64,000 nucleotides of DNA from Ginglymostoma cirratum (taxonomy: Eukaryota): positions 1,159,659 through 1,223,658 of the forward strand of contig JAHRHZ010000109.1 of the NCBI GenBank assembly GCA_024137785.1, given 5' to 3'. Shown here piece after piece: positions 14,341-62,507 of the stretch. Position 1 is the first letter of the stretch. Each line of letters starts with the position of its first letter. The notes beneath the pieces are model-generated. The model did not search any database and had not been told where the DNA came from. It saw only the letters and a list, made by a program, of their open reading frames with translations. The position numbers and the translations under genes are program-made.

Positions 14341-14352
14341 TCTTTACAGACA

Positions 14353-14975: not shown

Positions 14976-15070
14976 GAGCTTGCCCGGAATTTGAATCCGG
15001 GACCTCTCAAATGCTAGTTAAATGCAAACCCCTGAGCTAAGCGCGAATCATACTTCTGGACCAACGAGCC
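14976..15070 (-). pseudogene. tRNA-Pro-type gene/pseudogene with 23-nt insert after nt 37 (anticodon reads AGC)
   Basis: Reverse complement GGCTCGTTGGTCCAGAAGTATGATTCGCGC TT AGC T [CAGGGGTTTGCATTTAACTAGCA] T TTGAG AGGTCCCGGATTCAAATTCCGGGCAAGCTC; 95 nt against 72 nt canonical. Confidence 0.8.
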
Positions 15071-16112
15071 AGTAAAACCCCTGCATTTCTGCCACGTGAC
15101 CCGGGTGTGAAGCAAATGACCATTTCAAGAACATCTTTTCATTCTGTCTCTTGGCTCCCAGAATGGTATTGTTAATCCCCTGCCCTGTGACCGGGCATTC
15201 TCCATTGGCGGATTATGAAACTGTTTTCTTCCTCTTGCAAAAAATACTGAGGGAAGGAAATGCACATGTTCTTTTCAGCTCCCTCCCAAACACATGGGGT
15301 TCAGTGACTTGAATGCGGTGTGACTCGGCAAATTTGATTGCGAACTTCCTCTAAATGTTTGTTATCCGAGATAGAAAAAGATGCTGAGCTGGTGGGAAAG
15401 AGAGAAAAGGACACCAGAGATTTCCCTCAGTTAAGTCAATGTGGGTTTTTCTTTTCTGTGCAGCCTATTGATGTTCAAGATTCGTCTTCACACAGAAATC
15501 CTGCAAAAGACTGATACAACGCAAGAGTCGGTTTGTTTGCTGCAGCCGGACAGGCGTTAATATCTGAAACCAACAACCCCAAATTAAGAGGAGCCGAGTG
15601 AAACTCTCACTCATGCCGTCATTCCCGTACAGAAGAGAGCCGTTCAGCTCATCGATCCCATCGAAACTCTGTCGCTTATATCTCTCTGGTATTATTCAGG
15701 AGCGGGGATATCTGTCCCAATGATGGTACCTGTTTATGATTCTGCGTCTGATATACTGATTCTCAAGTTGATTTACTATTGTCGCTTGACCCTCTTGTTA
15801 TTCACAACTTGCCATGTCAACAGGAGGAAGCTGCGGTCCAAAAGTTTGGGGAATTGCTGCAGGATGTCCTCAGCATCTAACAGACTGCAAATAACGTGTT
15901 TCAACTTCACCAGATTTTATGGAGGACTTATTCAATGTTAGATTGCGTGCACAAACGTGCTGAGGCATTTGTTCCCATTTTCAATAAGTTTCCGTTTGCC
16001 ATCTTCGCTGCATTGACACTTCTGCCCCATCCTGACTTCAGGAAGTCCGACCTCATTGGAAACCGCCTTTTTTTCCCCAGAAAGCTGATCGTGCGAGTAG
16101 GCTACAAGAAGA

Positions 16113-16203
16113 CCAGAAATCCCAGCATTCAACCCAGTACCTCTCGCATAATCCACACTGTATAATCCCCAAAGCGAGAATCATACCCCGAGGTCAATGA
16201 GTC
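16113..16203 (-). pseudogene. tRNA-Pro(TGG) pseudogene with 19-nt intron-like insert (16149-16167)
   Basis: Reverse complement ..GGGGTATGATT CTCGC TT TGG G [GATTATACAGTGTGGATTA] T GCGAG AGGTACTGGGTTGAAT. The anticodon stem is perfect on both sides of the insert. The 3' acceptor strand is lost. Confidence 0.85.
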
Positions 16204-17019
16204 ATTGCCTGAGCAGCATCAGCAGCCCCGGACCAGCTGAGAGTCACTCAGAGCAAAATACATTCCACGTTGCTCCTGGGATTCAAAGCACCAAAGAATT
16301 TCCAGAACATCTTCATTCTGTATCCCTGCTCTCGACACAGAGTATAACATTCAGATTCACCGTTAATGTGAAGAGAGATAGTGGGACTGTGGCTTCCGCG
16401 GTTGTATAAAATTCACTGTACCTGTGTCCACTAGCTGGAAAAGAACTGCAGTTGATTGGAAACATCTCTTTCTGAACTCACTGTCACTCTGCTACAAAGG
16501 GACGAGCTGGGAAATCCTGATGCATTGAAAAATAAAATTTAGCGCCGATAGATTAAGTAATTTAAGATCAGTATAATATTATTTACACCGCGCCATCACC
16601 AACTGAATGAAGCCGCTGCCCAGGGGTGGCGACTGTGTTTAAACCCCATGATGAATAGGTTGTGTTTTACTTCTCACACTAGGGGAAGTGAGCATTTACC
16701 CAAACAATTGGCACACCACAGCTCTGAAACATTGTTCAAATGGAAAACCTGGAGAGCAATAGGAAACAAGCTTTACGATACACACACACACCATCGCCAA
16801 AAGCCACTGCCTAACATGTATTCCAGGAAAGCTAGCCGACATTTGAGCAGCGTAAGCCTGACATGATTCAAAAACGGAGCGCTGTTATCTGGAGCCAAAT
16901 AGGCTCCCTTTGCGACGCAAGGTCACACATGCTGTAAGCCTACTGTATAGGGTTAAGGGAAGTGATCGCACCACAATGATTTTAAACTATTGTTGACAAA
17001 GGAGGTCAAAAGATAGTGC

Positions 17020-17190
17020 TCTTTCTCTCTTAAACCATCCCCACATCACCCCGCCTTTCTCTCTCTCTCTCCATTCCTCTTTTTTCTCTCCCTGCTTGTC
17101 TGTCTGGCCCTCTGTCTCCTTCATTTCACCCTTCTCTAATTCATTGCCTCAATTTCTCTCTCTTCATTCTCTACCTATCTTCGTACGTTC
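17020..17190. repeat. CT-rich low-complexity tract
   Basis: (CT)n and polypyrimidine runs. Confidence 0.7.
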
Positions 17191-18689
17191 TGTTTTGAAT
17201 TTGCGGGACACTGGGGAGATTGATTCTAACCGGCACAGGGCGGATCCAGGACTTGTTCCTTAACCTCCTTCAAATACAACGAGAGGGAGAGGATCTGAGA
17301 GGGATGAAACACTTGACGAGATTCCAGTTCCTCTTTCCGAATATCGTTCAGTAAATTCAGACACCAAAACCCCCCAATATTTCTCCAATTTCACCAAGAA
17401 AAAGCATCATGAATATCATTGATAGAAATATAGATTCCCAAAGATTGCTTAACTTAAGTGTCTGAGATTGTAATGTATAAATGTAAATACCTGGGGATGT
17501 AATTACATTTCATTGAAAGGTTCAGCACCACGTGACCCACGACTAATCCATATTCACATTCCAGGAGCCAGCATCATTGGTGCATCACAATAGTTGACGG
17601 CTATTACCGTTCATGCCATATGACGTCATGTTGCAGCTAGAAGCCACAAGGACAGTTAATGAAAGAAATCTCACTAAGGGTCAGACATCCTTGCGTCGGG
17701 AAACATTTTGATGGCCAACCACAATCATTTCACGTGAATACAAAATCTCAAAATTAAACAAGCTCGAAGCATCCTCCTTTATTCTCATTTAATGTTCGAT
17801 ACCCTTTAAGCTAGATAATGATTTCTGTGGGCAATTGGTTAAAGTCTGAACTGATGAAAAGCGATGTCAAAACTTTTTAAATGGAACATCCCCGTCTTGA
17901 TTTCTAAACTCATCGCTTGATCCAGTACTAAACCAAGCATGTTACCATGTAATCAAGCCCGACTACAGCAAAGGCTCCATTCGGTCTATCCATTTTGTTA
18001 TCCTGAACAGAGGCACATTTCACACTTGAATTTAAACTGAGAAAATTGGAGACAGACTGCGGAATCAGTTTCTATGTATCAACACACATGGCTAGTTCCT
18101 GGTGACATAGGCGTGTTTGTAGTGGTTGAGGTGACACAGCTATGTCTCCGTAACGAATGCCTCAGCCTTTATTTTGGAATAGTAAAAGTGAAAGAGGAAA
18201 ACTGTCATTTTGGTAGTTGCAATATGACGTTTGAACTTGCTGACACCCGGGTTTCGGGGATCGTTCAGGTTTGTTTCACATCAGTCTCCGTATTGTTTTT
18301 AGTCAACAAGTTCAGCTGTTGACCAAAATTTTTTGAGAGTTGAAATTTTTAGTTTCCTGGTCAGACATTTCCGACCCGTCAATTAGCTGTGAGAAAGTCT
18401 TCTCCAATCATTGGAACAGTTTTTGGATATACAGTACATTCAGGCTTCGACATCTTATACCAATATTCTTTCAAACTCAACATGGAAACAATTAACCGAC
18501 CACACACCGAGAGATAATTTATGCGAAATCTACGGAGCTCTCGGTTTCGACCAAACTCGATAATGACTCTTTCCTCATCAAGGAAAACAGAGAAGAGCAC
18601 AAGGCCAGCAATATTCCAAACCCACACACTCCAATTATTTTCTACCAGCGACAAGCAGTAACTGCAGCTTCTTTGAAGTCCCATTCAGT

Positions 18690-19340
18690 GACTTCTGATC
18701 GTCCATAGCTCCTCATAGATGCCCACACCTGAGTTCTAGATGTGTTTGCAGTCTGTCCTATTTAGCACGGTGATAATGCCATATGACACAATGGATGGTA
18801 GCCACAATGTGAAGGCGAGACTTCGGCCCGACCGTAACTACATACTGGTCGCCTCCTGCCGTTACTGTCATGGACAGATGCATCTGCTGAGGACAGATTG
18901 GTGAAGATGAGGTGAAACATGTTTTCACTCTTCCTGGTTCTCTCGCCACCTGCACACCCAGTCGAACAGCTTTCGGATCTGACCAGCTGCTGCCGAGCCA
19001 CTCTGGACGATGGACATTGAAATCGCTAATACAGAGTTCATTTTGCGCTCTTACCTGCCTCAGAGCTCCGTCCAAGAACTGTTCAACATGAAGGATCACT
19101 GATTCATCAGCCTAGTGAGAACGGTACGTGGCAATCATCAGGAGGCTTCCTTGTCCATGTGTAACTTGATGCCCTGAGACTTAATGGGATCGTGACTCCA
19201 TGTTGAGAACTCTGAGTCAACTTCCCCCCGACAGTGTTGCAATGTGTGGCCACCTGTACTGGGTCTTTCATGAATATTGAACAGGACACATCCAGGGATC
19301 GTGATGGTGAATCTGGGATATTGTCTGTAATATATGTTTC
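18690..19340 (-). mobile_element. Non-LTR retrotransposon (CR1/L2-group) AP-endonuclease fragment
   Basis: Minus-strand frames give ILHVEQFLDGALRQVRAQN..SDFNVH, HLIFTNLSSADASVHDS and VIWHYHRAK, degenerate APE motifs with several frameshifts. Confidence 0.75.
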
Positions 19341-20169
19341 TGTGATTTCAGATTGGTTGTAATTTTACAAGTATGACAACTGTCCTTTGCCAGTTTTTCT
19401 CTCACAAAATATAGTCTGTGGCATTCATTGTGAATACACTGCAACTGTCTGACCTCCCACCCCTGCAGAGACATCTGTGTCACTGTGAACCAGCTCTCCT
19501 GAACCCCAGGACATCTCCCGTTGAGCCTGTCCACTTGTCTCTTCCAAAATATCGGATTGTGCTGCAGCAGAGAATCCGTTTGAATTCCTGATAATTTCAA
19601 AGAATGTTGATTATTTCAATGTCTCAGATCAGGCAATGACACCGAGAACATCAGAGTCAATGACCCAGCGTCTTAAAGAAGGGAAAAGAGCTATGAAGGG
19701 CTCTGCTCAATCAAACAATTCAACCTGCCCTGAATCTGCTTCACAAAGAGTTTTGAAAGATTCACGAAGCTGGAGACTGGATTTTCTGTTTTGTTTCCTT
19801 TCCAAGTTTCCAACCACCAACAGACAATTTTGGCGCTGTTTATAATGTTGGGCATGGGCAGCTTGTTCGAGCTGACAGTGAGAAATTCTTGCCACAGGCG
19901 AAAGTGAGTCAGCAGAGCACTTGGATTTAGGAAAGAATTATTTGTATTCAGATCGCACTTTTCCAAAGCAGAGATGAAGCCAGTTTGCCCATGGGCAGGT
20001 GTTCTTTCAAAGTTGATTCTTTGTTTTCTGAAAATGCATGTCCACTGCAAAGACCCGAGGGACATCTCAGACTGACATTGATTTGGAATGAGGGGCTTTC
20101 ATATGCGTTTGAAGTTTTTCCTCCAGAGTACGCTAACCAGCGAGTAAAGGATATGTTTGGAGCTAATAA

Positions 20170-20254
20170 TGGCTCAGCTGTAGTTTGAAGGGGAGACCTC
20201 TCGCATTCTCTAGATTAGGCCCAAGGGAGAATCATATCTCTAGACCAATGAGCC
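20170..20254 (-). pseudogene. tRNA-Pro-type pseudogene with 13-nt insert
   Basis: Reverse complement GGCTCATTGGTCTAGAGATATGATT CTCCC TT GGG C [CTAATCTAGAGAA] T GCGAG AGGTC..TGAGCCA; 85 nt. Confidence 0.8.
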
Positions 20255-21621
20255 AGTCACTGTTCCGGTGCTTAATCGGAAACTAGGTGACACTCATTCA
20301 GTGATATTTTCCCTATTTTTGATATCAGAGTCGCGGATTCAAGTTTCTTCTGCTCCAGAGGTGTGTCATAACATCTCTGAACAAGCTGATTACAATAAAA
20401 AGGCACATTTGCTTCTGCAAGTGAAAGCAGCAATGAACTGCTTCTTCCCATTCTCTCTCCATGCTCCCGGGAATCTGTTCCTTGCTCCCTTCCTCCTAGG
20501 ACCAGCTCTCTGCATCAGCAGATAGATTAAACCATTTCCCTCCACGGGCTGACAGTGCTGGGAGACGGTACGCTGTGCAGCTCCCTTTCAAACACTGGCA
20601 GAGGAAAGGAACAGAAGAAGCAGAATCAGATTTGTGTAGGAAATTATAAACAACGATTGGGAACTTCCATCGAATGACATTTATCAGAGAAGAGAGAGAA
20701 TGCAAACCCGCTGGAAAAGAGAGAAGTCGAACCTGGACACTGTTACCTTTGGAAACTCAATATGGCACATTTCTGTGCAGCCTGTTTGGTGCTCAGGATT
20801 CACATAACAATCTTGCAGAAAGGTTTGCAAAGCGGACGTCTGTTTCTTTTCTGTGACTGGGTAGGATTTAAAATCTGACAGCAACAGTCCCAGTTTAAAA
20901 GGATCCGAGTGAAACACTCACTCACTGAGAGTCATCTCCTGTGACCCTGACCTGCGAGGCTGCACACAGTTCAACGCGGAAGGTGGCGTGGTTGGCGGGA
21001 TAGGGGTGGGAGGATTAAAATGAGCCATCGTTTCTCACTTGCTCTGTCGCAGAAACAGTGAACAATGTCAGAAGTCACACAACACCAGTTTATAGTCCAA
21101 CAGCTTAATGTGAAATCACACGCTTTCTGAGCGTTGCTCCTCCATCAGGTGAAGTGACAATCTTCACTGGCATCTCCACGCCACAGACATAGGGAGAATG
21201 ACGTCATAAACCAATGGCGTCATTCCCGTGCAGGAAGAAGCAGTTCAGCACATCGGGTCCACGGCCACTCCCTGTCACTTGTATCTCTCTGTAGGTTTTC
21301 ACCATCGGTGATATCTGTCCGAATAATGGTGAACTGTGTCTGAGTCGTGATGTTGTCTCTTACGTGAAGATCCTCTTACTGTTAACGAATGTTGACTTCA
21401 CCGGGAGATCACCACCGTCTGAAACAGCGTGGGCAATTATTACAGGGCATCCTCTGCATGAAACACACCGCAATTCATGTGCATCAATATAAAAGAAATA
21501 CTTCTGAGGCATGCAGTCCCGGGAAGCAGATCAAAGTGCAGTGCACCGCACAACGGCGCTTTGTGCTAGAAGATCCCTGGGAGGCACCAGTACAGGCAAA
21601 TCGCAACACGAAGCTCCTAAA

Positions 21622-21692
21622 GAACAGAGGATGGTTTCGATCTCCCGATCTTTACTTAAAGGCCCAGCATGATCACACTGTACCATTCTGAT
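21622..21692 (-). pseudogene. Initiator tRNA-Met pseudogene (anticodon reads TTT)
   Basis: Reverse complement ..tgctgggccTTTaa..gatcgaaaccatcctctg carries the iMet-diagnostic GATCGAAACCATCCTCTG 3' end. Confidence 0.75.
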
Positions 21693-22599
21693 AGCGTGCA
21701 GTACTGTGCTTTAAGGGAAGTATTGGGATTTTCGTCTGCCGCGTGACAAGTACATTTGAGAATGATGTCAAAAGACTGTAATAATTTCCTGGCTGTGTTT
21801 GGATATTTTTTGTCTAACTTCCCACCTTCTGTTATTTGAACTCAGATTTCACGCAGAATCACAACATTCAAGAAACATTCGGAGTCGGGTTGCATGGGCG
21901 AACATCCTGAAACACTTGTTTTCCCTTTGAGAAAGTGTTTCCCTTTGCCGTGTTCGCTGTCCTGGTAGCTCTGACCCGTCCCTACTTCAGGCAGTCCGAC
22001 CTCATTTAACGAAGCTGCGTTTTCGGAAAGCTGCTCGGCGATTTGGTAAAATTGAAGACATTGGGACCACCTCTTTCATGGACGTATATTAACAACACGC
22101 ACTTGTGAACGGGGCGGACGATTTCAACATCCTAAAATGAGGCAAAACTCACAAATGAACTAATCAACGCAGAATGCCATAAAAACTGTTTTTTTGCAAC
22201 GAAGTTCATTTCGCTTAACATCGCTTGATTATCCTGAGCCTGATCCTCCAAAAATAATGGTTCAAGTTAATAAAAGCTGCTCTGTGTGAGATTTGATTGC
22301 ACAACCTTGCATTTCACACGCCTCTCTCTGCATGTCTTCTTGCTATATTAATTGATCTCTTACTGTGTTCTTTTAACACATGCTAAGAGGAATAAATGGG
22401 AACAGCAGTGATTACAAAGGTTACTGTGATCATAACGCAAAATACGTACAACTACACGATCGCAACACCACAGAAAATATGAAACGCTAGAAAGCTCCAG
22501 ACACACAACGCGCGTACTTTCCAAACAGCGGGCTGATATTAGGGAACACGGAATGGGGAGAACCTTTGCAGTTCGTGACTCCAAAGTTTATGAATGCTC

Positions 22600-22960
22600 C
22601 GCATTGAGTCTGTGAAAGACTGAGATTGTTAGATTGCTTCAGATTAAAATCGTCAAGAGCTCAGGGGATAGTGCAGAAAAATTATGTTAAAGTAAAAGGT
22701 CATTCGTGATGTCAGTGAACATCGAGGCGGGCTTGCAGTTTGCAACGTGTGTCCATGTCGAATGAAAATACATTGACAGGTTTGTTCCAAATTGAAGTGT
22801 TCAGTGGAAGCAGGAGGCTGAGGGAGGTGCAGGGCAAACCAATTCAGATGGGACTGCAGGACCTGCAAAGACCTTGTACAGGAGATTGTACAGCACAGAA
22901 GAGAGAATTGATGCATTGAATTTGGGTTGAGGGGCCCAGCATCCTTTCACAAGTGAGGGT
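22600..22960 (+). mobile_element. LINE (CR1-like) 3' remnant
   Basis: gagattgttagatt..aggggata.. resembles a CR1 3' UTR. Highly decayed. Confidence 0.4.
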
Positions 22961-23169
22961 TTACTGGGATATAAGACATTATAGCGACCATGGATAGCGT
23001 CTAGTTGGATATAAAGACAACAGAAAAGACACGGACTGGGTTTACTCGGATATGAAAATGTTAGGAAGGACACCGACAGGGTTTACTGGGGTTTCAGAAA
23101 CACGCTAAACTTTGTCAACTGTTTCTTGTTGTCTCTAACAGAATCAATTTCTCAAATTGATTTTATTAT

Positions 23170-24020
23170 CACACGGACCAAGGTTGTAAATGCTGAAACT
23201 ATGCACTAGTCGATGCTGTCTGCTCTCACGCATCGCAGTTCTCTCCAGGAGCTGTGAAGTTGATGGTCTGAATTGCCTTCTCCCATTCTCTGTCACTTTG
23301 GGATCATTTGAATCATGAAATCTATTCTCTAAGCTGTGAACAACGTGTTGAAGTTGATACACATCAGGTGCAGTGTGTTTGAAAGACAGGACTCCCTGAA
23401 GTAGCACCCCACGCTGAATTAGACAGCTGCGCCATCCCTGTGACATCGAGAAGGACACGGACAATGCTCCCCATTATGATGAGAGATTTTTTTCTTTTCC
23501 AGCAACTCTGCATTTTTCGCCGTGTCTCAGATGGAGTAATTTGGATAAGATTCCCAACAGAATGCTAGATTCTGTGCATGTGCGGTCTCCTTTTTGTACA
23601 GCCTTCACACTTCCCATATGTCTCATTCCCACCACACCCCTCCCCTGTGCTGTAAGTCCGTATTGACAGGGAGCTGAAGAGCGCATTCATGCTGTTCTCC
23701 TCCAGCACGGACTTCCAGTGGAAGATCGTTTACTCCAGCCGCCAATGGAGAGAGCGTATTCCCGGGGAAAGAGAGCTGACAGAGCCTCCCGGGAGAATGG
23801 GCTCAGAATGGGAAGAAGCTGTTAGTAAAACTCAGTGCTTCTTTAGTGTTAACGGCACCGAGCTGTTGCTGATTCATTGGTTTAAATGTATGATTCCTTA
23901 TACGTATGGATTGAGTAGGTAGGAACGTCTCTCGCATTCAAATCACGGGCGATCCCTGGTGTCATGTATCTTGCTCCATTCTTCACTTGGGAAGAAGAAG
24001 TCGGTCTTCTATAAATTGGG
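23170..24020. repeat. Segment duplicated in inverted orientation at ~63150-64000
   Basis: agctgaagagcgcattc (23673) vs gaatgcgctcttcagct (63518); ttctctgtcactt vs aagtgacagagaa; cagaatgggaagaagctg vs cagcttcttcccattctg. Confidence 0.85.
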
Positions 24021-25083
24021 ATTAAACTGGAGAAGCTGAAACACATTACTTTCAGTTATTTTACCAAGACCTGCAGTAATTGCACATGCAGTTTCAGACG
24101 TGAAGAACAAGAGGATCATCATGTTGGAGACAGCATCACGACACAGACACAGTTCACCATTATTTGGACAGATATCACCAATTGTGAATAATCTCAGAGA
24201 AATACAATCGACAGGCAGTCACCGTGGACTCGATGGGCTGAACGGCTTCTTTCTTAACAGGGATGACGCCACGGGTTTATGACTTCACTCTCCCTGTCTC
24301 TGTGACAGAGCGGGTTGGGAAGAAATAATGGCTCATTATTAACCCTCCCTTCTGCGTTCTACTGTCTGCAACCGCGCAACTCAGGGCCGATGTGGGTGAC
24401 TGTCAGTGAGTGAGTGTTTCACTCGGATTCTCTTAATCTGGGACTGTTGGTGTCAGATATTAACTCCTGCTTTGGATGCAGCAAACGAACAGACGCCCGC
24501 GTTGCCAAAGTGGTATTTGCAGTGTTTCTGTGTGCAGACGAATCCTGAGCACCAACGGGATTTTACAGGAAGATTCAATTTTAAATTGCTGAAGGAATTA
24601 ATCTTCAGTTTCGACTTCTCTCTTTCCCAGCAGCTCTCCATCCTTCGGCTTCTCTCTCATAAATGTCATTTGACAAAAGTTCCAAATCGCTGTTAATAAT
24701 TTGCTGCACAAGCCTGATTCCACCCCTTCTGCTCCTTCCATCTTCCACTTCTTGGGAGGGAGCTATAGACCGTATACGATCTCCCAACACCGCCTGCCCA
24801 TGGAGGGAATTAGTTTAATGCATCTGAGAATGGAGACAACACTGTCCCTGCGGAAAGGACAAATAGCACTGGGAGACAGAATGAGAAGAAAACGTTTTTT
24901 GCTGCTTTCACTGCCTGAAGCAATGGGGAACAATATTTTCTTTCTTAGCAACATGTTCACCTATGTTATTGCACACCCCGGGAGCAGATAGAACTTGAAC
25001 CTTGGTCTCCTAAGTCCGAGGAAGGGACACTATCGCTGCCTGAGTGGCCCCTGATTTATTGTTAAGTGGGGCTTCACCAGGCT

Positions 25084-25168
25084 GGGCCATTGGTCTTGTT
25101 GTCTGATTCTTACTTCACGTGGATATTGGGAACGTGAGAAGTTGCAGGTTTGAATCCTGCACGAACCC
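25084..25168 (+). pseudogene. tRNA-Pro-scaffold sequence with CAC anticodon and 13-nt insert
   Basis: GGGCCATTGGTCTTGTTGTCTGATT CTTAC TT CAC G [TGGATATTGGGAA] C GTGAG AAGTT GCAGG TTTGAAT CCTGC ACGAACC C; 85 nt; inverted paralogue of the 20170 locus. Confidence 0.7.
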
Positions 25169-25622
25169 TTGTTGCATTTGACGTGTTTTTAAATGCTCGG
25201 GAGAGCATGGAGGTTTTTTTTTTTATGAAATAGATTTCGGTCCATGATCCCAAAGGGTGTTTGCTGTGAATATATCACATGCACCTACTTCACCTGACGA
25301 AGGTTTAGGGCTAGTATTAATGTGAAAGTACGTTTCACTGGATTGGGTCGTTAACTAGAGCAGTTACTGTGAATAAAATGATGGCAATTTTCAGCAGAGA
25401 AACAGGTGACAGCGAAACAGGCATCTGTTTTTGTTTTTTATTTGATTATTTTATTAGTTTTTTTATTGCCAGTGAAATTTAACGCATCGCAAAGTGGGGA
25501 CCATCGAAGTGAAACAGTGACAGCGATTATCTCTGCTGGTGTTCACCTCATGAATCACATTTCCACCTTGGTCCCTGTTAACATCACAACTCGACCGGAG
25601 GTAACTTATACAGCCAGGCAAT

Positions 25623-25695
25623 AGGCTAGTAACGTAATAGATAACGCATCTGACTCCGGGTTAGAAGATTACGAATTCGAGTCCTTCCTGGCTCG
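25623..25695 (+). pseudogene. tRNA-Arg(ACG)-type pseudogene (anticodon reads CCG)
   Basis: gataacgcatctgactCCGggttagaagatt..ttcgagtcct.cctggctcg matches the Arg-ACG body. Confidence 0.8.
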
Positions 25696-26000
25696 AGCTC
25701 AGAAGAAGGGCCCAGGCCCGAAACGTCAGCTTTCTTGCTCCTCTGATGCTGCTTGGCCTGCTATGTTCATGCAGCTCTACACCTTGTTATCTCAGATTAT
25801 CCAGCATCGGCAATTCCTACTATCCCTGTGAGGTAATTAACTTTGTCCTAAAGGATATTCAAGCTATCGTGAAACAAAGAACCGCGGATGCTGGAAATCT
25901 GAAACAAAAACAGGAAACGATAGAGGAACCGAGCAGGCTTGGCAGCATCTGTGGAGAGAAACAGAGTTAACGTTTCAGATCCACTGACCGTTGGTCCTAA
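25696..26000. mobile_element. Two short shark-type interspersed repeat fragments in opposite orientations (possibly Penelope-derived)
   Basis: gaagaagggcc..cccgaaacgtcagc..gctcctctgatgctgcttggcctgct and gatgctggaaatctgaaacaaaaaca..ggcagcatctgtggagagaaacagagttaacgtttc. Related pieces at about 4350, 6970, 8175, 48090, 52860, 53520, 55020 and 58015. Family assignment is from memory only. Confidence 0.6.
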
Positions 26001-49432: not shown

Positions 49433-49522
49433 AGGAGGGGGGAAGGTGAGAACCTTTGCTGTTTAGATCAACAATATGGCATTTCAGAGAAGTTGAAACG
49501 AGTAATCTTCAATGTAAAGCTC

Positions 49523-51568: not shown

Positions 51569-51650
51569 GTAGGTTGTGGCTGAGTGGTTAGGCAATGGAT
51601 TCGAAATCCTTTGTGGTATTTATGTGCAGGTTCAAATCCGGACAGCTACA
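51569..51650 (+). pseudogene. tRNA-Ser pseudogene (anticodon reads CGA)
   Basis: gtaggttgtggctgagtggttaggcaatggattCGAaatcc...gcaggttcaaatcc..ctaca. Confidence 0.8.
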
Positions 51651-52618
51651 TTTCTGCATCTTGTTTTAAACGACTTCGTGATGTCAAAACAAACTCATGT
51701 TTTCTCCGGTATGGTAGTTTGTTGACATTCAGGAAAGATGCGGTCTGAACAAGAATCTAACTGTACTCGAAATCTTAGCTGTTTCTCTGTCCACCAATAA
51801 AGCTGGACCTGTTGAGTTTCTGCAGTATTCTATGTGTTTATTCTGCATAACTGCTGTTTTTCATGAAATATCTCCAATCCCAGTCCTCTGGCGACTGACC
51901 CTTGTAATTGGCACAGTTTCTCCGACGATCAACCGGCCAATCCCCACCCCCAGCCAACCCCATCATTACATACAGCTCCAGGAAATCTCCGGTTTTGCTC
52001 CAAAGAGAACATTCCCAGCCCCGGGATTCTGTCCACCAAACGGGATTTCCTCATCTCTGGACATGATGCAAGAGATTTTGGGAAAATATTGTCAGCTGTC
52101 GAGGAGAAAAGTATTAAGGAAGCAAAGCAGAAAGCCCAGTCTCCAGCAATGTGAATCTTTAGAACCGTTTTGGGAACTGGAATCACAGGAGAATGAAGAG
52201 TGAACTTTCCGACTGAGCACAAAGAGTCCAGACACCTGCCACTTCTTTCAGAGGCCGGGGCATTTATTCGGATGTTCTCGAGACATGAACTGATCTGAGA
52301 CATTGAAAGAATTCCCGTTCCTGCACATCAGGAATTCAAATCTCATCTCGACTCCGGGACAATGAGAAAACTCGGAAATAGACAAGACACTGAAAGGGTC
52401 GAAGGGAGAAGGGCCCAGTTGTAGGATTGCTGGTTCCCGGTGATATGGACTGGTCTCCAATGGGTAGGATTAGACTGATCCCATGTCTTCTCAATGAATG
52501 TCCCAGGTTTTAGTTTGGAAAATTACAACTGATACAAGACAATTGCCATTCCAAGCGAGGCAGTTGGAAGTTTGAATTCACTAAGAGCCCGCTTTATGTG
52601 CTGCTGCAAGAGCTCGCC

Positions 52619-52692
52619 ATTTTCTGTGGTGCAATTGGCTGGCGCTTCGACTATGAAATGTGAAGTTGGGGGTTTGAGGCCACTGAGGAAGG
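52619..52692 (+). pseudogene. tRNA-Asn-type pseudogene
   Basis: tctgtggtgcaattggctggcgcttcgact..gaagttgggggtttgag.ccac aligns to the Asn-GTT body. Confidence 0.6.
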
Positions 52693-53201
52693 AACAAGTG
52701 CTGTTCTCACTCTACCAGTTCCCTTTTGACTGTACAGTTACGGGTTTTAATGCAGTCAGGAAAATATTCCCCAAATGGAAAACTTGTCCAGTGAGTGACA
52801 AGAAAGGTATTTCAACGTTGCTTTAATAGTTATAGTAATTAGCTGGGGATGTTTGGAACATGAAAGAAAAGCAGAAACTGCTGGAGAAACTCAACAGGTC
52901 TGACAGTACCGAAGGGAGAGAACAAAGTTCTGAAGAAGTTCTGAAACGTGGACTCAAAATCTCTTCCCACAGATGCTGCCAGACTTGCTGAAGTTTTCCT
53001 GCAATTTATATGTTCGCTTTTAAATGAACATTTATTTTATTATTGGGATGAAACAACCTGAATCACCATGTACTGGATTTAACACTTTAGAAATCTGTGA
53101 AGTAATTGGATTCAAACAAGGCCAGCGAAGATTCATTCATTCACAGCTCGACTGGGCAGGAAAAGTGACCTGAAAAGGTAAGCGGCGTAGCATTTGTTTC
53201 T

Positions 53202-53284
53202 GTAGTCGTAGTCGAGTGTTTAAGGTGATGGACTTGAAATCCGTTGGGGTGTTCCTGTGCAGGTTCATACTCCTGCTGACTATG
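53202..53284 (+). pseudogene. tRNA-Ser(TGA) pseudogene, relatively well preserved
   Basis: gtagtcgtagtcgagtgtttaaggtgatggactTGAaatccgttggggtgttcctgtgcaggttcatactcctgctgactatg; D-loop GG and T-loop altered. Confidence 0.85.
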
Positions 53285-54811
53285 GCTAAGAGCTGAGAGT
53301 AAATCCAAAGCAAGCTTGCTCACCTTTGTTTGCGGCAGGGAGTGCAAAACTTTTCACTCAGATCACCAATGGTGGGAATAAGCAACTCACTGGCTGTCAT
53401 AATAGAACAAGCACAATAGTTCATCAAAGTTAAGGTGCTTTTAGATATACACTTGCAGGGCCAACCTTGGTGAGGCAGTGAGGACATGAGCCATGTGCTG
53501 GGAAATTAGACTAGAACATTCAGTTCTGAGAAAGGGTCACCAGGCCTGAAACGTTAACTCTGATATTTCTTCACAAATGCTTCCAGACCTCCTGAGCTTT
53601 TCCAGCAACTTTGTTTTTGTTCCGAGAACAGTCAGGGTCTTGATTTCAACTAGTCAGACCCGATGGACTGAAGGGTTTTTTCTACGGTGGAGACCTCTAT
53701 GAACAGCTGTGGCCAGCTCAGTGTGTGAAGTGATAGGACAACGTTTGCAAAATGCACCCAGAGCCAGGAAGGGATAGAACCGACTCTCCCCGATCTCCCC
53801 TGATCTGGCTTGATAACATGGTCAGACATGTTATCCATTGGGATTGGGGATAACCGATCCTATGTATATTCCTGGAATCAGTATCTGGGAGAATCAGAAA
53901 GATGCAATGCTATTGTCGCTTTGCTCAGCCGTGTGCAAACCCATCGCTTCTCAATCCCTTCCTTGTGCCTTACATTCTCTGGACCTATTGTCAAGGTAAA
54001 GATTGACTTCACTATCTGCCTGTATTTTTATCAAACAGCTCATTGACCTCGGGGCTGGGTGGTCAGAGGGAGCTGGAGGTGAGACAGGGACAGAAGCAGG
54101 AAAGATGCCACATGAAAGTGTTTAGAGTTTGCCGTATGTCGGTTGTTTTTAGCGAGGGATGTCTGCCGGTCGCTGTCCTGTCGGATTCCCAGGAGCTGCA
54201 GGGATCGGGTCGGTGATGTTTCGAAGTTGAAAGCCCACTCGCAGCTTGTGGGAGTAATTCAACTCACTGTCCATTACATATCGCAGCTCACGGTAACGGT
54301 TCTTGTTGTCTAGAGAAGTCGCTTGTGATCCACTGAAACTGATCTTCTGTCAGAGAAACCTATGTGTGAGAAGGGAGAGAAGACGTGAAGCAGACGGAGC
54401 GGGTATAATCCTGAGGCCCCTGTCACTCTCCGGGGATGTGTCTGTGCGCCTCCCTCTGTGGGTGAAGATGAGAATCAGATCCTCAAGAGGGCTTCAACAC
54501 AGTTTTACCATCTCAAACTTCAGTCCCATTCGTTGCGTCATTTGAGATCACAGGGATAAGCTCATTGACATTTGCCCCCAAAACGCCAGAGCACACAAGG
54601 CTGTGGGCCAAATGCTGGAAGCTGGGACTAGGTAAGTGGAGGATGAATGTCCTGAATGGAAACGATGGGCCGAATGGTCTTCTTCCACCTTGTAAAAACT
54701 CGGAGAGAGAGAAACCGATCTCCAGCGAAAATGATCATAACCGAACATGCAAATGCAGTGTCATAGAGAAAATGCACAGCCCCACCACCACACCACACCC
54801 CTTTGTCTTGC

Positions 54812-54883
54812 TCCCTAGTAGTCCAGTGGTGTGGGCTTGGTGCTTTTACCACTGCGGCCTGGGTTCAATTCCCAGTCAGGGAT
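54812..54883 (+). pseudogene. tRNA-Glu-type pseudogene (anticodon reads TTT)
   Basis: tccctagtagtccagtggtgtgggcttggtgctTTTaccactgcggcctgggttcaattcccagtcaggga; T-arm and most of the acceptor stem intact. Confidence 0.85.
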
Positions 54884-54949
54884 TAAAACGACATTTATAT
54901 TAGTTTATCATGGTGACAGCCTTCCTTCCTGATGTTTCAAGAGCTGTCA

Positions 54950-56090
54950 GCTCATTTGTTTTGTCCGAAAAGTTATTCAGTTAACATTAAACAAAGAGAT
55001 GTGGCAATCTGACACAAAAGCATGAATTGACAGAGAAACTCAGCAGGTCTCACAGCATTTGTGGAAAGAAACAAGTTATCGTTTCAAATCCTCTGCCTGT
55101 ACGTCAGTACCAGGTTAATTATGCATTTCTATATCATAATTCCGGGAGAAATTATCACCATTATCTGTCGAATCAGCGTATTTATCAAAATTTCTTTCTC
55201 TCATGAGCTTACTCACACCAACTTTACAACTTTAAAGGTACTTCATCGTCTCTAATGCTGCTTCCGCTACCCTGAGGCGGTGAAAGGCTCTGCTTAAACG
55301 GTTGCCTTTTCCTTTCTGTAAGTGCAGCCATATCGCATGGAGAATTGGTCCTTTCTGCGTCTACCTCAGTATGCGCCTCTATCTGTCTCTCTTTGTCTCT
55401 GTGTATCCACCTCGCCCCCTTTCACATTCTCTGACACTCCATCTGTCCATATCACTCATTTCCCATTTCTGCTCTTGATGAGTCTGAAATTTGGAGACTT
55501 CTTGAGAGTGGAGAGTCTGGTCCTGGGATCAAAGTTCCCCGGAGGATGTGCCTGGCATTTATGACTGAGATAAGGAGAAATTTCTTCTCTGAAAGGATTG
55601 CGAATCTTCAGAATTCTAAAAAAAATTCCTAACTCACCAAAAAAAAATGCCACTACAATTATAGGATTATAGGTCTTTATTGCTGTAGTAAAATGACTGT
55701 ATGTGGACAGTAGAGAATGAGAGTGATCAGCTCGTGGTGTCTGTGCCATTACCACAATATTCCCCGCTAAATCTGCACTTTATCCTGCCTCACCTCATTA
55801 TTCCTACCTAGGTGAAAATGAAGCGTTGAGAATACAAGAAAAGGAAAAGTAGAGTGCTTGTGGAACAGCAGAAAGGAACATCATAATGAACCCAGCAGAA
55901 AAAGAGGAGACACTGAAGCAGCATCCTCATGACAAATGTGTTTTCTTTGTCAGCAAAACTCACGGCATCAGAAAGCAGGGACTTTTGAAGTGAAGCAGTG
56001 ACGGTGATTATCTTTGTTGGTTGTTCACGCTGTGAATGTTACCGTTCTTGCTCATGTCGGTGTTAATGCCACAACGCTGCCTCATATAAA
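54950..56090. repeat. Segment paralogous to ~25860-26960 and ~48060-48970
   Basis: Shared atctgtcgaatcagc..atcaaaat, gagaatgag.gtgatcag and ccattaccacaa.attcc in all three. Confidence 0.85.
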
Positions 56091-56196
56091 GCAACATGCA
56101 GAAACTGGAGATAGGTTCTGAAAACTGAGTAAACTCCCGCTGCGCAACGAGGCTGACTCTCGGCGTTAGGAGCTTTTGCAGAGCCTAATCTCAACA

Positions 56197-56270
56197 GTTT
56201 CTGTTTTGCAATATTTCAGCGCATTCGGGTATTGAGAAAAAGATTGGTGTTTCAAGACTACCCAGGAACG
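56197..56270 (+). pseudogene. tRNA-Asn-type pseudogene
   Basis: gtttctgttttgcaat..agcgcattcgg..aaagattggtgtttcaagactacccaggaacg; 74 nt, colinear with Asn-GTT. Confidence 0.65.
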
Positions 56271-57382
56271 CAGCCCCTTCTATTTTACTACCCATTAACG
56301 TTTCCCGTGACACAGAAGATTGTCAATCGGGATTATGCCTTCCAGAGATAGCTTCAAAACTTTGTAAGCTCCACTGTTATCCAGTCAGACCCCGGATATA
56401 CAGGTTTTAATGCAGTTCTTCTCAACACAATGATCAAACTATTAAACCGGCTATGTACTTGCATTTAATTCATAGAAGTCTATGAAAAGATTGGACTGGA
56501 ACAAACCCATCGATGATTGTTTCTTCCCCAATTCCGCACGGAGTGAGACAGGGACAAGCAGTAGGATTTGACCCTGCATCCTCCAATCCCCCACTGCCAG
56601 CAGATAGCGGCCACTGCAGCTTTAATCAGCCGCTTGCTGCCGATCCCTGGGAGGCAAGATCGTCCAACTGGGGCCAAACCTTCCAATGCACCCAGCACAG
56701 GCTCAGGAAAATACAGGGTAACTACATCCCGCTCAGTATACCTCAGAGCAACATTGACGCAATATCCAAGCGAGTGGAATTTTCTCTGAGCCTCACTTGG
56801 GAAACCTCAACTGATACAACTAGTGGAAACCTGTTCCCTATGAAAGGTTCTTCCCATGTGAAAAGGGGCGAAAATCCTTTTACATTTCACAATGCTTGCA
56901 GCAAATTCTCCTTGACCTTCGAATCTTTTCATCTGAACTCTGAAAATCCAGTCCCCAAATGCGAAGCAGCAGAAGCTGCTGATATACTGAGCAAACAGAG
57001 TGCTGAATGTTTTCAATGAGACTTGGCAGATAGATATGCAATTCACACAGTCTGTAACAAAAATGACTGAGTTTATTGAAGCTGATTCACCAGTTCTCAG
57101 AGTGACCTTCAATCAGATGGGGTGCTGAGCGATGAGGGCACCAACATTAAAATATGAATTTTGAATGTTAAATCCCGGAACAAGCGCTGAAAATGGGTTA
57201 GAATGGTCTGAAGGAAAAAACAGCCGATAAGTGGAAGGTATAAATGATGTTATTTGTAATTGAAAGGAATGAAACGGAAACTTGAGATTTTCGAAGTGGA
57301 ACATCTTCAGCAACTTGAAATGAAGAAACAGACGATTTTGGTTCAACATGGGGAAATGGGAAACCGAGGAAAGCTAGCACCC

Positions 57383-57455
57383 GCCTGGCTAGCTCAGTTA
57401 GTAGAGTATGATACCTTTAATCTCAGGGTTATGAGTTTGAGCCCCATGCTAGGCG
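57383..57455 (+). pseudogene. tRNA-Lys pseudogene (Lys-CTT-type body, anticodon reads TTT)
   Basis: gcctggctagctcagttagtagagtatgataccTTTaatctcagggttatgagtttgagccccatgctaggcg; acceptor stem paired, boxes mutated mostly at CpG. Confidence 0.88.
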
Positions 57456-58354
57456 CCGTTATTGCTTTGCAAATTCACTTCTTGAGTTGAAGCTAAGTAC
57501 TTCATTCCGCCAGCAGGCTCAGTGCTCAAAACATCGTTTCCCTCGTGCTGCTTTCTTTGAGATTGGTTTCCAGTTTTTGAGTGAAAACTATCTCCATTTT
57601 CCTGGAAGTCCCAAGGATCAGTTTGTAGGTGCAGCTGCACGTGAAATAAATGATATTTCGAAGAAGCAAGCCCTACTCCAATCCTCCACCATCAAAATTG
57701 TTTTGAGAATGGGAATAGTCAGTTCCTGGGCGGCTCCATGTCAAATGGAGCTGAACCAGAATTACCTAATTCTGAGGGTTCCATGGAAAACGTCAGCGAA
57801 ATCTCCATGAAGGTTAACCACTTCACAAGGAAAATTATCTTCTTTTGTGACCGTGTGGGTTTACTCAATAAAATCTGTATTCTCGGTAACAGAGGGGAAA
57901 GATTATGAGTTTTCAGTCCGTGATAGAAGTGACCTGGGTGAAAGTGGAAGTAAAATATCCCCAGAGAAGAGAGAGTCGAGTGGTCCAGATTGGCTCACTC
58001 ATCTTCTCTTTAACAGAACAGAAATTGCTGGAAAAACTCAGCAGGTCCAGCAGCACCTGTGGAGAGAGGGCAGAGTTAACATTTTGGGTCGAGTAAGCCT
58101 TTTTCACAACTTGTGTTTTTTTTTGTTGTAACTTGTTCCATTTACATCTCCCTCTGCCTTTCAGTACCCTCCGTATTTTTTATTGAAACCCTCCTGTTCA
58201 CCACACTCTCACAGAGTTTCTCTTTTATTATTTCCTCTTCTGTCCATTTCCCTGTATGTATATTTGGTTCAAACCCGTTCCATTTCTTAATTTTCCCAGT
58301 TCTGACGCTGAACAATTAACTGTATTTCTATCACCCTAGGTACCAGAAGACCCG

Positions 58355-58490
58355 AGGCCATAAGATATAGGGACAGAATTAGGCCTTTCGGCCCATCTAG
58401 CTTTCTCTGCCATTCAGTGGTGGGTTATATGGCTCTCAATCCCATTCTGCAGACTTCTCCTGGTCACATTTTATCTTCCCAGATATAGTA
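58355..58490 (-). mobile_element. CR1/SINE 3' tail fragment
   Basis: ccataagatatagggacagaattaggcc.ttcggcccatc is a reversed CR1-type 3' UTR. Confidence 0.65.
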
Positions 58491-58533
58491 CCCAGTCTCT
58501 TTTCCAGCGTGGATTCGAATCCCCCCGCTACCA
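58491..58533 (+). pseudogene. tRNA-Leu 3' half
   Basis: ccagtctct..gcgtggattcgaatccccccgctacca; the 5' half is replaced by the repeat. Confidence 0.65.
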
Positions 58534-59220
58534 ACTGTTATGCCGAAGCTTGGCAGGGATGATTTGCGTTTAACTTCTCTTTGTTTAGCCCAAAGCAATC
58601 TTTGATGTGGGACAGCACAAAGCCTCCATCGGGTCAGCGTCCACGCATTGTTTGCATCGTGCAGTGGTTATCATATGCGGAATGCTCCCAGCATAATAGC
58701 GGGGACAAGCAGACTGCGCTGCTGCTTCATGTTCCAGGCAAATTACGTTGCTCACCCTTTTCGCTAAAGGTAAATAGAGGTCGCTATTTCGCTGCTGATG
58801 TGAAGCAAAATCCCGCTTTGAATCTACTCGCAGTTATTTGCCTTTTTTGGCGAAAAGGAGGGTAATTAGAATGTGAAATTTCTTTCTTCTCCTTCATTTC
58901 AGTCCTGGAGAAGGCAGTGCCTGAACCACCTTCTTGATACCCTGCAACCGTTGCGGTGCAGGCCCAACCGCGTTGTTAATCAGAAGGGAAACCGATCCTA
59001 ATCGAGACTGTGATTGCTTGCATTCATTTTTGTGAGTGATTCTTAATCTGTTCTTTTTTTTTCCCCTTATTTGAGAACTTTCCGGTAAGTGGTGTTGGGC
59101 TAAGCTTCCAGTATATTTGGAAGAGCTGTTTGGTTTGGCCCCGATGCCAGTTGTGTGAGTAGTTCATGACCCAGAGAACTGGAGGTGTTTCACAGAAAGC
59201 ATTAGTGTTTCTGTGTGTCT

Positions 59221-60175
59221 GCAAATTAGCAAATTTGCAGATGACACAAAGCTGGGTGGCAGTGTGAAATGAGAGGAGGATGTTATGAGAATACAGAGTG
59301 ACTTGGACAGGCTAGGTGAGTGGGTGGATGCATGGCAGATGCAGTTAAATGTGGACAAATGTGAGGTTATCCACTTTGGTGGCAAGAACAGGAAGGCAGA
59401 TTACTACCTAAATGGAGTCAAGTTAGGTAAAGGGGAAGTACAACGAGATCTAGGTGTTCTTGTACATCAGTCTATGAAAGCAAGCATGCAGGTACAGCAG
59501 GCAGTGAAGAAAGCTAATGGCATGCTGGCCTTCATAACAAGAGGAATTGAGTATAGAAGCAAAGAGGTCCTTCTGCAGCTGTACAGGGCCCTGGTGATAC
59601 CGCACCTGGAGTATTGTGTGCAGTTTTCGTCTCCAAATTTGAGGAAGGACATTCTTGCTATTGAGGGAGTTCAGCGTAGGTTCACGAGGTTAATTTCCAG
59701 AATGGCGGGACTATCATATGTTGAAAGATTGGAGCGTCTGGGCTTGTATACACTTGAGTTTAGAAGGATGAGAGGGGATCTGATTGAGACGTATAAGATT
59801 ATTAAGGGATTGGACACTCTGGAGGCAGGGAGCATGTTTCTGCTGATAGGTGAGTCCAGAACCAGAGGACACAGTTTAAAAATAAGGGGTAGGTCATTTA
59901 GAACAGAGTTGAGGAAAAACTTCTTCACCCAGAGAGTGGTGGTTATATGGAATGCTCTGCCCCAGAAGGCAGTGGAGGCCAAGTCTCTGGATACTTTCAA
60001 GAAAGAGATGGATAGAGCTCATATAGATAATGGAATCAAGGGTTATGGGGATAAGGCAGGAGCAGGATACTGATTGTGGATGATCAGCCATGATCATAAT
60101 GAATGGTGGTGCTGGATCAAAGGGCCGAATGGCCTACTCCTGCACCCATTGTCTATTGTCTATTGTCTGTTGTCT
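59221..60175 (+). mobile_element. Young 5'-truncated CR1 LINE; open ORF2 C-terminal 262 codons (59285-60073); (TATTGTC)n tail
   Basis: KFADDTKLGG start; WQMQLNVDKCEVIHFG, RDLGVLV, LYRALVIPHLEYCVQF, RKNFFTQRVV; 3' UTR and heptamer tail. Absent from the paralogous site at about 39550. Confidence 0.97.
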
Positions 60176-60361
60176 AGAAATGCGTTTGCCTTGTCATTTT
60201 TGCTTCAGTTGCGCGTTAAGAACTGTCTGTGTGAGGATTCGCTCGAAACCTGAGGTGCTAACACAGTTTGTGAGGAATTTTCCTGAATCCAAAATCCTCA
60301 CTGAGAACCTGGGAAGATGTCACAGAGAATGGACTTTGGGGGTAAAAGTGAACAGACTCTT

Positions 60362-60435
60362 CGCCTCTGGGTGGTCGCCAACCACGAACCTTCTGCTTAA
60401 GAGCCAAACGCGCTAACCTATTGAGCCACAGAGAC
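60362..60435 (-). pseudogene. tRNA-Asn-type pseudogene (anticodon reads CTT)
   Basis: Reverse complement gtctctgtggctcaataggttagcgcgtttggctCTTaagcagaaggttcgtggttggcgaccacccagaggcg. Confidence 0.85.
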
Positions 60436-60499
60436 AGGAGCCAGGCATGCTGCAAGTCATCACTTAAACCGGGGGTCAGCAACTGCAGCATCGAAGAGA

Positions 60500-60960
60500 T
60501 ATACAGCATGGAAACAAAGCCTTCAGTCCACCTCTTCGATGCCGACTAGATATCCTAAATTAGTCTATCTCCATTCGCCAGCACATGGCCCTCATCCATC
60601 TAAACACTTAAATTCATACACGCATTCAGGTGTCTTTGAAATGTAGTAATTTTTACGAGCCCTCACCACTTTCTCTGGCGGTTCATTCCATACATACACC
60701 ACCTTCGGCCCTCAGGTCCCTGTTAATTCAGTCCCGACTACCTTACATATATACCCTCTCGTTTTGCACTCGCCCACTCTGGGAAAATGACATTGTCTAT
60801 TCACCCAATCCGTATCCCTCATGATTAGACAAACTTCTGTAAGGTCATCACTTAGCTTCTTACGCTCCAGGAAAAATTACCCCAAGCCGTTCAGCCTCGC
60901 CCAACAGCCCAAAACCTGCAACCCTGGCAAAATTCTAGTGAACATTTTCTGGGCAATTTT
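60500..60960 (-). mobile_element. CR1 3' fragment (cassette copy)
   Basis: acagcatggaaacaaagccttcagtcc..cttctgtaaggtcatcacttagc..cgctccagg is paralogous to 33870 and 36470. Confidence 0.7.
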
Positions 60961-61095
60961 ACGCGGTATATTTTATTTTTAACAATGTCAATAACTCTGG
61001 ACAGCATCGAAACTTGAAACCGAGAGATGAAGTGTTGAACGCCTGCAAATTTCAATGCTGTACGAAGGACAGCGGGTAGACAGCTTTGGCAATGC

Positions 61096-61168
61096 GTTTC
61101 TGTAATGCAGTGGCTATCAAGTTCCCCGAGCATGCGAAAGGTCCCCGATCCGAAATTGGGAAGAAACA
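61096..61168 (+). pseudogene. tRNA-Val-type pseudogene
   Basis: gtttctgtaatgcagtggctatcaagttc...gcgaaaggtccccgatccgaaattgggaagaaaca. Confidence 0.8.
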
Positions 61169-61437
61169 GTTGCGCTCCATTTATTTCAGTAACAGATGTT
61201 CGGATTGCTGTAGACAGAGCTACCTTGCTGGCTGCTCTCAACGGTGAAACTTGCTTTCTGTTAAGTCAGCCAAACCTGCTGCTGTCGTTACTTTTTTGTT
61301 GTGGAAAAGAGGGTAATTCCACTGCATTGCGGTGGAAAGCTTTGTGAAATTTCTCTCCTTCCTGCTCCTGAGTATGGACCGATTTATACAGCACAGATGC
61401 TCATCTTTTTTGTGAGTGCATTCAGAGTGCCCGTATT

Positions 61438-61509
61438 ATTTCTGCAGTGCAGTCGTGTCTCATTTGATTTAGGTACGATAGCGTCTCGGTTCAAAGTCAA
61501 GGAGAAGCC
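61438..61509 (+). pseudogene. tRNA-Val remnant
   Basis: Cassette position and cggttcaaagtcaaggag match the 34786 copy. Confidence 0.5.
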
Positions 61510-62439
61510 TAGTATGCTGGTGTCATCGTGCCCCCGCGCATTCCTGATTTACCCTCTCTGTCAAATACATCTCAAAGTAATCTCTGATAGGCTTAATTCC
61601 GCGGCTGTCTGTCCTGTCTGGAAAGCTCTGCAGCCAAATGCACAGCTGAGGAGAAAGACAAGGAAAATAGCAACTTGTACCTAAATCGAGGTTCGAATAG
61701 CCTCGCAATGTTCTCGGATTCTAATGTCAACTCAGCTTTTCAGATGGAGGATCATCTTTGAGCTACTCATTCTGCAAAACAGTAGTGCCTGGCCCGCTGT
61801 GCTCATCGAGCTCCACACTGTGTTATCTCTGACACCAGCATCGGCAGTCTTACTATCCCCTCGTGGTAACTGTAATTACGCTGAACGGTATCATCTGGTA
61901 CACGGCCTGCTCGGCTTTGTGCATTTTCACTGCATTCCGATGTTTTTTCAGGTTACCTGCAAATGAGAAAGCATACCCGTTTATAATTTCTCACAGGCAC
62001 GTTACATTAGTTGTTCAACTGAGTCTCGAAATATGCATTCAGGTTTCCATTGATTTTTGCTTTAATTAAAGTGTTATCGGCATTTAGTGGGAGGCCTTTC
62101 CCTTTGCCTTCGCTTTTGTTGTGTTCCAGTAGCAACATTGGAAAAATCATTGCCCGGTGCGGTAATCTTCGCCGGAATACAGCCAGCTAAGCAGAAAGAC
62201 AAGGAAAGTGAAAGGAATTATGTTAATGTGGGTCGTACCTTCACTGCCTTTAAAACAATTTCGCAATGGGATCTGCCTTTTTCGGATTTGAAATCTGCTT
62301 ACCATTCGAGACGAAAGTTTTTTTCGGAGCCGCTTATTTTGCCATACAGGCTTAGTACCTGTAGGTATGTTGCACGGTATCATCTTGTACACGGCTCGCT
62401 CAACTTTGTGCATTTTCCCTGCAGTCCGGAGCTGATCAT

Positions 62440-62507
62440 TTTTCACTTATACATGCCAACGCTGTATAATACCCTGAGGAAGAATCATGCCTCTGGACCA
62501 ACAAGCC
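62440..62507 (-). pseudogene. tRNA-Pro(AGG) 5' half plus intron-like sequence, 3' half lost
   Basis: Reverse complement GGCTTGTTGGTCCAGAGGCATGATT CTTCC TC AGG G [TATTATACAGCGTTGG...]. The insert start and upstream flank are homologous to the 16203 copy. Confidence 0.75.

Follow-up and report, generated by a model that had tools for sequence, protein, structure and literature searches.

Decayed intron-bearing tRNA-Pro genes of Ginglymostoma cirratum and an intact, probably spliced Pro-AGG pair

The window analyzed here, a stretch of 64,000 nucleotides from Ginglymostoma cirratum (C109:1,159,659-1,223,658, from a 4.36-Gb assembly), contains eight loci, and possibly a ninth, that resemble proline tRNA (tRNA-Pro) genes and carry extra bases after nucleotide 37 of the anticodon loop. 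The window itself is a graveyard, and the result of interest is an intact pair of intron-bearing Pro-AGG genes on another contig (C46) together with its probable intronless human orthologue. The tRNA cluster and its Pro-like loci are listed here in window coordinates.

11792..64000, unstranded: decayed tRNA gene cluster, a mosaic of tRNA-plus-spacer modules (mostly 0.7-1.7 kb units in both orientations, 65-84% identity)
14976..15070, minus strand: decayed tRNA-Pro, originally AGG; insert 15012-15034, an 18-nt intron plus a 5-nt local duplication
16113..16203, minus strand: decayed tRNA-Pro(TGG); 19-nt intron 16149-16167; 3' acceptor strand degraded; sole best breakpoint at 37/38
20170..20254, minus strand: decayed tRNA-Pro, anticodon now GGG; 13-nt intron 20206-20218
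23871..23956, plus strand: possible ninth Pro-like copy, heavily decayed; 14 extra nt; 48/72 matches; best break at index 26
25084..25168, plus strand: decayed tRNA-Pro of the 13-nt intron class; intron 25120-25132
42265..42349, minus strand: decayed tRNA-Pro(TGG); 13-nt intron 42301-42313
44271..44360, plus strand: decayed tRNA-Pro(TGG); 18-nt intron 44307-44324; T-stem lost
46637..46721, plus strand: strongly decayed paralogue of the 25084 copy; 13-nt intron 46673-46685
62440..62507, minus strand: truncated tRNA-Pro(AGG); 5' exon 62472-62507; 18-nt intron-like stretch 62454-62471; 3' exon lost

As the reference for aligning the window we used L008, an intact tRNA-Pro without an intron from the same genome, leaving the breakpoint free and allowing inserts of 0-40 nt. 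Six of the eight listed loci and the possible ninth passed the score cut, and the reversed window, used as a control, returned 0 matches. The break was fixed at 37/38 in all seven complete copies, where 22-29 of the 36 bases of the 3' exon matched when the insert was allowed for vs 6-13 of 36 when it was not. An earlier, sequence-only reading had proposed extra sequence at exactly this site and had named scattered boundaries as grounds for refutation; its proposal was borne out, as the insert lengths (23, 19, 13, 13, 13, 18 and 13 nt) agree, the 3' exon is regained in every complete copy and the boundaries do not scatter. Its 23-nt insert at 14976 stands as a length and falls as an intron length, because a paralogue of that copy (L004:2616-2705, AGG anticodon) has an 18 nt insert without the 5-nt duplication. 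Its minimum of four intron length classes is likewise upheld in modified form, the classes being mainly 18-19 and 13 nt, with 12 and 19 nt in the intact C46 pair. The 46637 copy, with exon matches of 23 and 23 of 36, is too decayed to pass the score cut unaided and was recognized as a paralogue of the 25084 copy (74.6% over 1,686 bp), while the truncated 62440 locus retains 29/36 matches in its 5' exon. In the possible ninth copy (23871-23956) the break does not fall cleanly at 37/38. A Pro anticodon is still readable only at 16113, 42265 and 44271 (TGG) and at 62440 (AGG), with the others reading AGC, GGG, CAC and CAC; the 25084 copy is likely a former Pro-CGG gene decayed at CpG, because the anticodon of its paralogues is CAG or CGG. 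None of the eight loci was detected by ARAGORN or Rfam under default settings.

The modules of the cluster extend past the window on both sides, and the window copies have up to 400 nt of upstream flank in common with one another and with copies on other contigs. They are dead duplicates of a few old modules and not independent genes. Across 464 kb of C109, of which 11,300 bases are N, inserts are present in 16/16 Pro-like copies, with anticodons AGG, TGG and CGG. The non-Pro tRNA-like genes found in the window cluster have no insert, and only two decayed non-Pro tRNA-like copies in the 464 kb have one, in the anticodon loop (L070:5962-6055, minus strand; L072:801-896, plus strand); both resemble Ile-TAT, a known intron family. 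A near-intact intron-bearing Pro-TGG copy lies 82 kb beyond the window (L039:1501-1590, at C109:1,305,777). It is the best-kept TGG copy, matching at 69/72 positions with all stems paired and with one D-loop and one T-loop change, and a 10-kb run of N starts ~1.5 kb further on.

Pattern and DNA searches of the genome yielded 78 distinct Pro-like copies above the score cut, a set that excludes the 46637 and 62440 loci and one N-truncated gene, which scored below it. An insert is present in 72/78 copies and absent from 6/78, with both counts being lower bounds. The sequence-only reading had found no insert-free Pro copy, which is correct for the window and the surrounding 464 kb and incorrect genome-wide, as intact intronless Pro-AGG and Pro-TGG genes are present and the Pro family is a mixture of intron-bearing and intronless genes. 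One of these, on contig C16 (L006:2383-2454), is an intact intronless Pro-TGG in which a C-G pair of the anticodon stem has become G-C by compensatory change. An intact Pro-CGG 5' exon was not found in the genome search, a result made uninformative by masked stretches. Very few intact Pro genes are visible genome-wide, and masked stretches or collapsed arrays probably conceal live tRNA clusters.

Among the 72 insert-bearing copies, 37/38 is one of the best breakpoints in 56 and lies at most 1 nt away in 65; where there is a single best breakpoint (27 copies), it is exactly 37/38 in 19. Inserts range from 11 to 23 nt with modes at 18 nt (35 copies) and 13 nt (17 copies) and have no terminal consensus. 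Structure was assessed in the 65 copies with a breakpoint at most 1 nt from 37/38, the 7 more distant ones having been excluded beforehand. Intron position -3 is a purine in 58 of the 65, and a helix between bases 32-35 and intron positions -3 to -6 is paired in 204/260 cells vs 127.7 ± 7.8 (maximum 155) in 2,000 shuffles. A five-position helix score reached 224/325 in the expected register vs 140-172 in six other registers. The geometry of this anticodon-intron helix is that of the human TSEN-pre-tRNA structure, in which a pair between base 32 and the third base from the intron end is followed by a 4-bp helix, with a 3-base bulge at the 3' site (PMC10539383). Intron position -5, which faces the wobble base, is T in 13/15 AGG copies and G or A in 21/23 TGG copies; this covariation is only supporting and may reflect one or few events, given the kinship of the copies and a further difference between the AGG and TGG groups at position -2 (p=0.0009). 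On every sequence feature tested, the Pro inserts have the appearance of canonical TSEN-type introns. TSEN catalytic subunits are expected in the genome; an exon-by-exon search of it for their family (PF01974) gave 0 matches from 2 candidates.

Two of the four visible fully intact AGG genes carry an intron, and both are on C46, arranged back to back ~1 kb apart.

C46:19,769,922-19,770,005, minus strand: intact intron-bearing Pro-AGG gene, 12-nt intron
C46:19,771,021-19,771,111, plus strand: intact intron-bearing Pro-AGG gene, 19-nt intron

Their exons are identical to each other and match intronless Pro-AGG at 71/72 positions, the sole difference being one D-loop base, a C at gene position 19, which is also found in an intronless TGG gene and which among the visible AGG genes is specific to the C46 pair; the other 70 insert-bearing copies have 48-69/72 matches. 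All pairs are kept in the acceptor stem (7/7), anticodon stem (5/5) and T-stem (5/5), as are the promoter boxes (A box and B box), and T4 runs or T10 follow at most 13 nt downstream. The 200-nt flanks of the pair score 37 and 27, near the 19-31 obtained for 300-nt flanks vs unrelated Pro genes. ARAGORN places the 12-nt intron at 37/38, while Rfam at gathering score detects neither gene. In both genes the partner of U32 is intron base -3, so that three bases bulge out at the 3' splice site, and the helix of the 19-nt intron has 6/6 pairs. From these features we consider it probable, with good confidence, that the C46 pair is spliced and functional.

We propose that the window copies are the dead remains of a tRNA-Pro family with introns, of which two intact members survive on C46. 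RNA polymerase III would transcribe the C46 genes into a precursor, TSEN would cut both splice sites and RtcB would join the exons, giving an ordinary tRNA-Pro(AGG) that would differ from the intronless AGG product at one D-loop base. The family would once have been large, with anticodons AGG, TGG and CGG, and would have spread with whole tRNA clusters before decaying, and its unspliced precursors would also have been retrocopied as fusions to a short interspersed element (SINE). The sequence-only reading had likewise envisaged spliced tRNA-Pro genes with live sources elsewhere, and the two intact C46 genes, the 37/38 boundaries and the preserved helix support it; the C46 pair, however, need not be the parent of the window copies.

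Several observations weigh against this proposal. The window copies are all non-functional, with an intact cloverleaf body in none. The helix of the 12-nt C46 intron is weaker (4/6 pairs, A34 unpaired) and its minimum-energy fold is another pairing. Comparison with the 18-nt family revealed no relationship for either C46 intron, as 57 and 283 of 300 shuffles do at least as well. The pair is therefore not established as the source of the window copies, and several intron lineages are indicated. Decoding does not depend on the intron-bearing pair, because the genome also has intact Pro-AGG and Pro-TGG genes without introns. As the two C46 genes are 1 kb apart, gene conversion could be a partial cause of their identical exons. 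The searches were biased toward intron-bearing copies and 72:6 is no genome-wide ratio; masked stretches conceal some genes, and L069 runs into N.

The strongest alternative is that the family was once spliced and is now entirely dead or silent, with the C46 pair intact by recent gene conversion or chance and yielding no tRNA. It draws on the decay of 70 of the 72 insert-bearing copies, on the intronless genes that are able to supply tRNA, and on a human precedent, Pro-AGG-3-1, whose extra bases are presumably annotated as an anticodon-loop intron. That gene (chr16:3,160,384-3,160,479) is 95 nt long, has a score of 36.6, and is repressed with near-zero tRNA reads, which shows that near-silence is possible for a long Pro gene (PMC10791582 supplements). 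The likeness is that of a vertebrate Pro-AGG gene 23 nt over normal length, but the human gene is single and low-scoring, whereas the shark has two genes with perfect exons and a large family. In both C46 genes, moreover, the stems are perfect and the promoter boxes and T-runs are preserved; their locus is single-copy, their flanks are unrelated, and they have in common a base absent from intronless AGG genes, which argues that they were not simply overwritten by those. We regard a wholly silent family as unlikely.

A SINE of ~310 nt directly follows 25 of the 78 copies (23 of them with an intron), starting 5-24 nt past the tRNA end in 24 and interrupting it in one; the fused copies include L001, L005, L040, L041, L043-L045, L047, L050-L055, L057, L059-L061, L063, L125, L129 and L134. 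This arrangement would suit an interpretation of the loci as heads of a tRNA-Pro-derived SINE or composite retroposon, with the insert being a feature of the element and no intron at all. However, the head, shared body and tail of a tRNA-derived SINE were not found together, as the SINE body is absent from all window copies, where the sequence-only reading had looked to a shared downstream body as a possible refutation, and from the C46 genes; intact stand-alone genes also exist. The SINE is complete at its own 5' end, begins at a variable offset (the 5-24 nt above) and also stands behind two intronless Pro copies. The 18-nt introns of 17 fused copies are only 55% alike, compared to 82% for their exons, suggesting many source genes and not one master. 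An element-borne insert is therefore very improbable. The SINE is presumably HE1-like. HE1 is a SINE of sharks and rays (PMC3747384).

In the proposal of a spliced family, the SINE-fused copies are likely to be reverse-transcribed unspliced precursors joined to SINE RNA. A shared upstream flank is absent in 22/22 fused copies tested, and in most of the fused copies the upstream side ends in a short common motif and the trailer is like those of cluster copies. A decayed intronless fused copy (L015) has a leader and trailer that match its evident source gene on C16, and the leader of L006:2383-2454 is the same. Target-site duplications give weak evidence: anchored duplications with a score of at least 8 were found in 3/20 tRNA+SINE units vs 2.6% of controls, with an overall p=0.08, and unanchored ones of at least 10 nt in 3/22 vs 5.4% of controls. 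Chimeric retrocopies of small RNAs and retroposons have reportedly been described in work on U6-L1. The fusions resemble these in joining a 5' copy of an RNA polymerase III transcript to a 3' retroposon, with the 5' part here being an unspliced pre-tRNA with its trailer and the 3' part a SINE; such pre-tRNA/SINE chimeras may be a general class in the genome. If the fused copies are retrocopied precursors, germline transcription of the family would be demonstrated. Decay at non-CpG sites is 7% in fused copies vs 18% in cluster copies, and this lesser decay suggests that active sources outlived clusters like that of the window. Hardly credible is a single chance anticodon-loop insertion in a pseudogene, multiplied by cluster duplication and never spliced: the window copies do have flanks in common as duplicates of few modules, but 12, 13, 18 and 19 nt classes occur at one position, with the helix kept and the wobble base matched across anticodons.

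The genomic setting of the C46 pair bears on the age of its introns. A TNPO3 exon lies ~38 kb from the pair on one side, and ~31 kb away on the other is an exon of calumenin that has 97-98% identity with proteins of skate and stingray. The human gene Pro-AGG-2-3 is presumably located beside OPN1SW, CALU and TNPO3. In teleosts, TNPO3 and CALUA lie on either side of the SWS1 opsin gene (PMC3116502), and TNPO3, OPN1SW and CALU are listed within the vertebrate IRF5 locus (PMC2885996, figure legend). Human Pro-AGG-2-3 (72 nt, chr7:128,783,449-128,783,521) is intronless and classed as housekeeping (PMC10791582 supplement). The locus of the C46 pair is probably that of this human gene, so an intron would have been gained or lost there after the split of cartilaginous and bony fishes; the TNPO3-CALU Pro gene thus probably differs in intron state between Ginglymostoma cirratum and human, by gain or by loss. 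Frames were scanned with Pfam near C46 (90 longest of 302) and near C16 (80 of 278). Between TNPO3 and calumenin (C46:19.73-19.81 Mb, L017-L024) no opsin domain was seen in the scanned frames, a weak result given that the exons are short. Reverse transcriptase and RNase H fragments of retroelements lie within ~12 kb and ~2 kb of the pair (L019:8010-8954 and L021:3030-3593). On C16, the intronless AGG/TGG pair has a wnt gene ~13 kb off, and human Pro-AGG-2-4 and Pro-TGG-2-1 are presumably near WNT11 on chr11. These two human genes are neighbors on that chromosome (PMC10791582 supplements). Pro genes lacking an intron are thus probably ancient in jawed vertebrates.

The human intron-containing tRNA families Tyr-GUA, Ile-UAU, Arg-UCU and Leu-CAA are substrates of TSEN/RtcB (PMC10275265). 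Shark Pro resembles all four in its short N37/N38 intron, in its anticodon-intron helix with a 3-nt bulge and in an intron sequence that is variable among members, and it resembles Arg-UCU and Leu-CAA in its mixture of intron-bearing and intronless genes (PMC10275265). Unlike these families, its isotype is Pro (AGG, TGG and probably CGG), its intact genes have A34 and most of its copies are dead. The yeast tRNA-Pro(UGG) genes are also proline genes with an intron removed by the SEN endonuclease; they differ in being fungal and UGG only, with longer introns (30-33 nt) in all 10 genes and ligation by Trl1 (PMC13079951), and homology is not implied. A tRNAscan-SE survey reported that sharks have clustered tRNA genes and an expanded set of tRNA loci with introns (bioRxiv 10.1101/2025.06.08.657570). 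Its tRNA section names no isotype and does not separate live, decayed and retrocopied loci, although Fig. 3A or the supplement might list Pro. The shark Pro family may be behind part of the reported excess, and decayed Pro copies and retrocopies are suggested to make up that part, which bears on how such counts are read.

Literature searches on tRNA introns, which did not extend to GtRNAdb and RefSeq annotation, found no description of vertebrate Pro introns; term look-ups in PMC2888827, PMC8044555, PMC7954030 and PMC10485636 returned nothing on them, and the rows listed in the tRNAscan-SE 2.0 supplement include no shark. The mechanism would be of the standard TSEN type, and automated annotation may already flag the genes. 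We give about an even chance to the full account, in which Pro in cartilaginous fishes is a fifth vertebrate tRNA family that is live and spliced, and the first with A34; its survivors would be orthologous to the intronless human Pro-AGG-2-3 at TNPO3-CALU, and dozens of retrocopied precursors would record its rise and collapse. How introns come and go in eukaryotic tRNA genes is still debated, mostly on evidence from yeasts (PMC4090602). A probable orthologue pair in which one side carries an intron and the other lacks it, together with many fossil copies, makes gain vs loss testable across lamprey, chimaera, ray and bony-fish genomes, and a precursor with A34 permits asking if inosine-34 editing or m1G37 methylation depends on splicing.

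Elsewhere in the window, a 209 bp repeat (27523-27731 and 27833-28041, 99.5% identity) flanks a 100-N run and looks like an assembly-gap artefact. Three tandem units of ~1.1-1.2 kb with 72-81% identity occupy 6970-10452, with no tRNA called inside.

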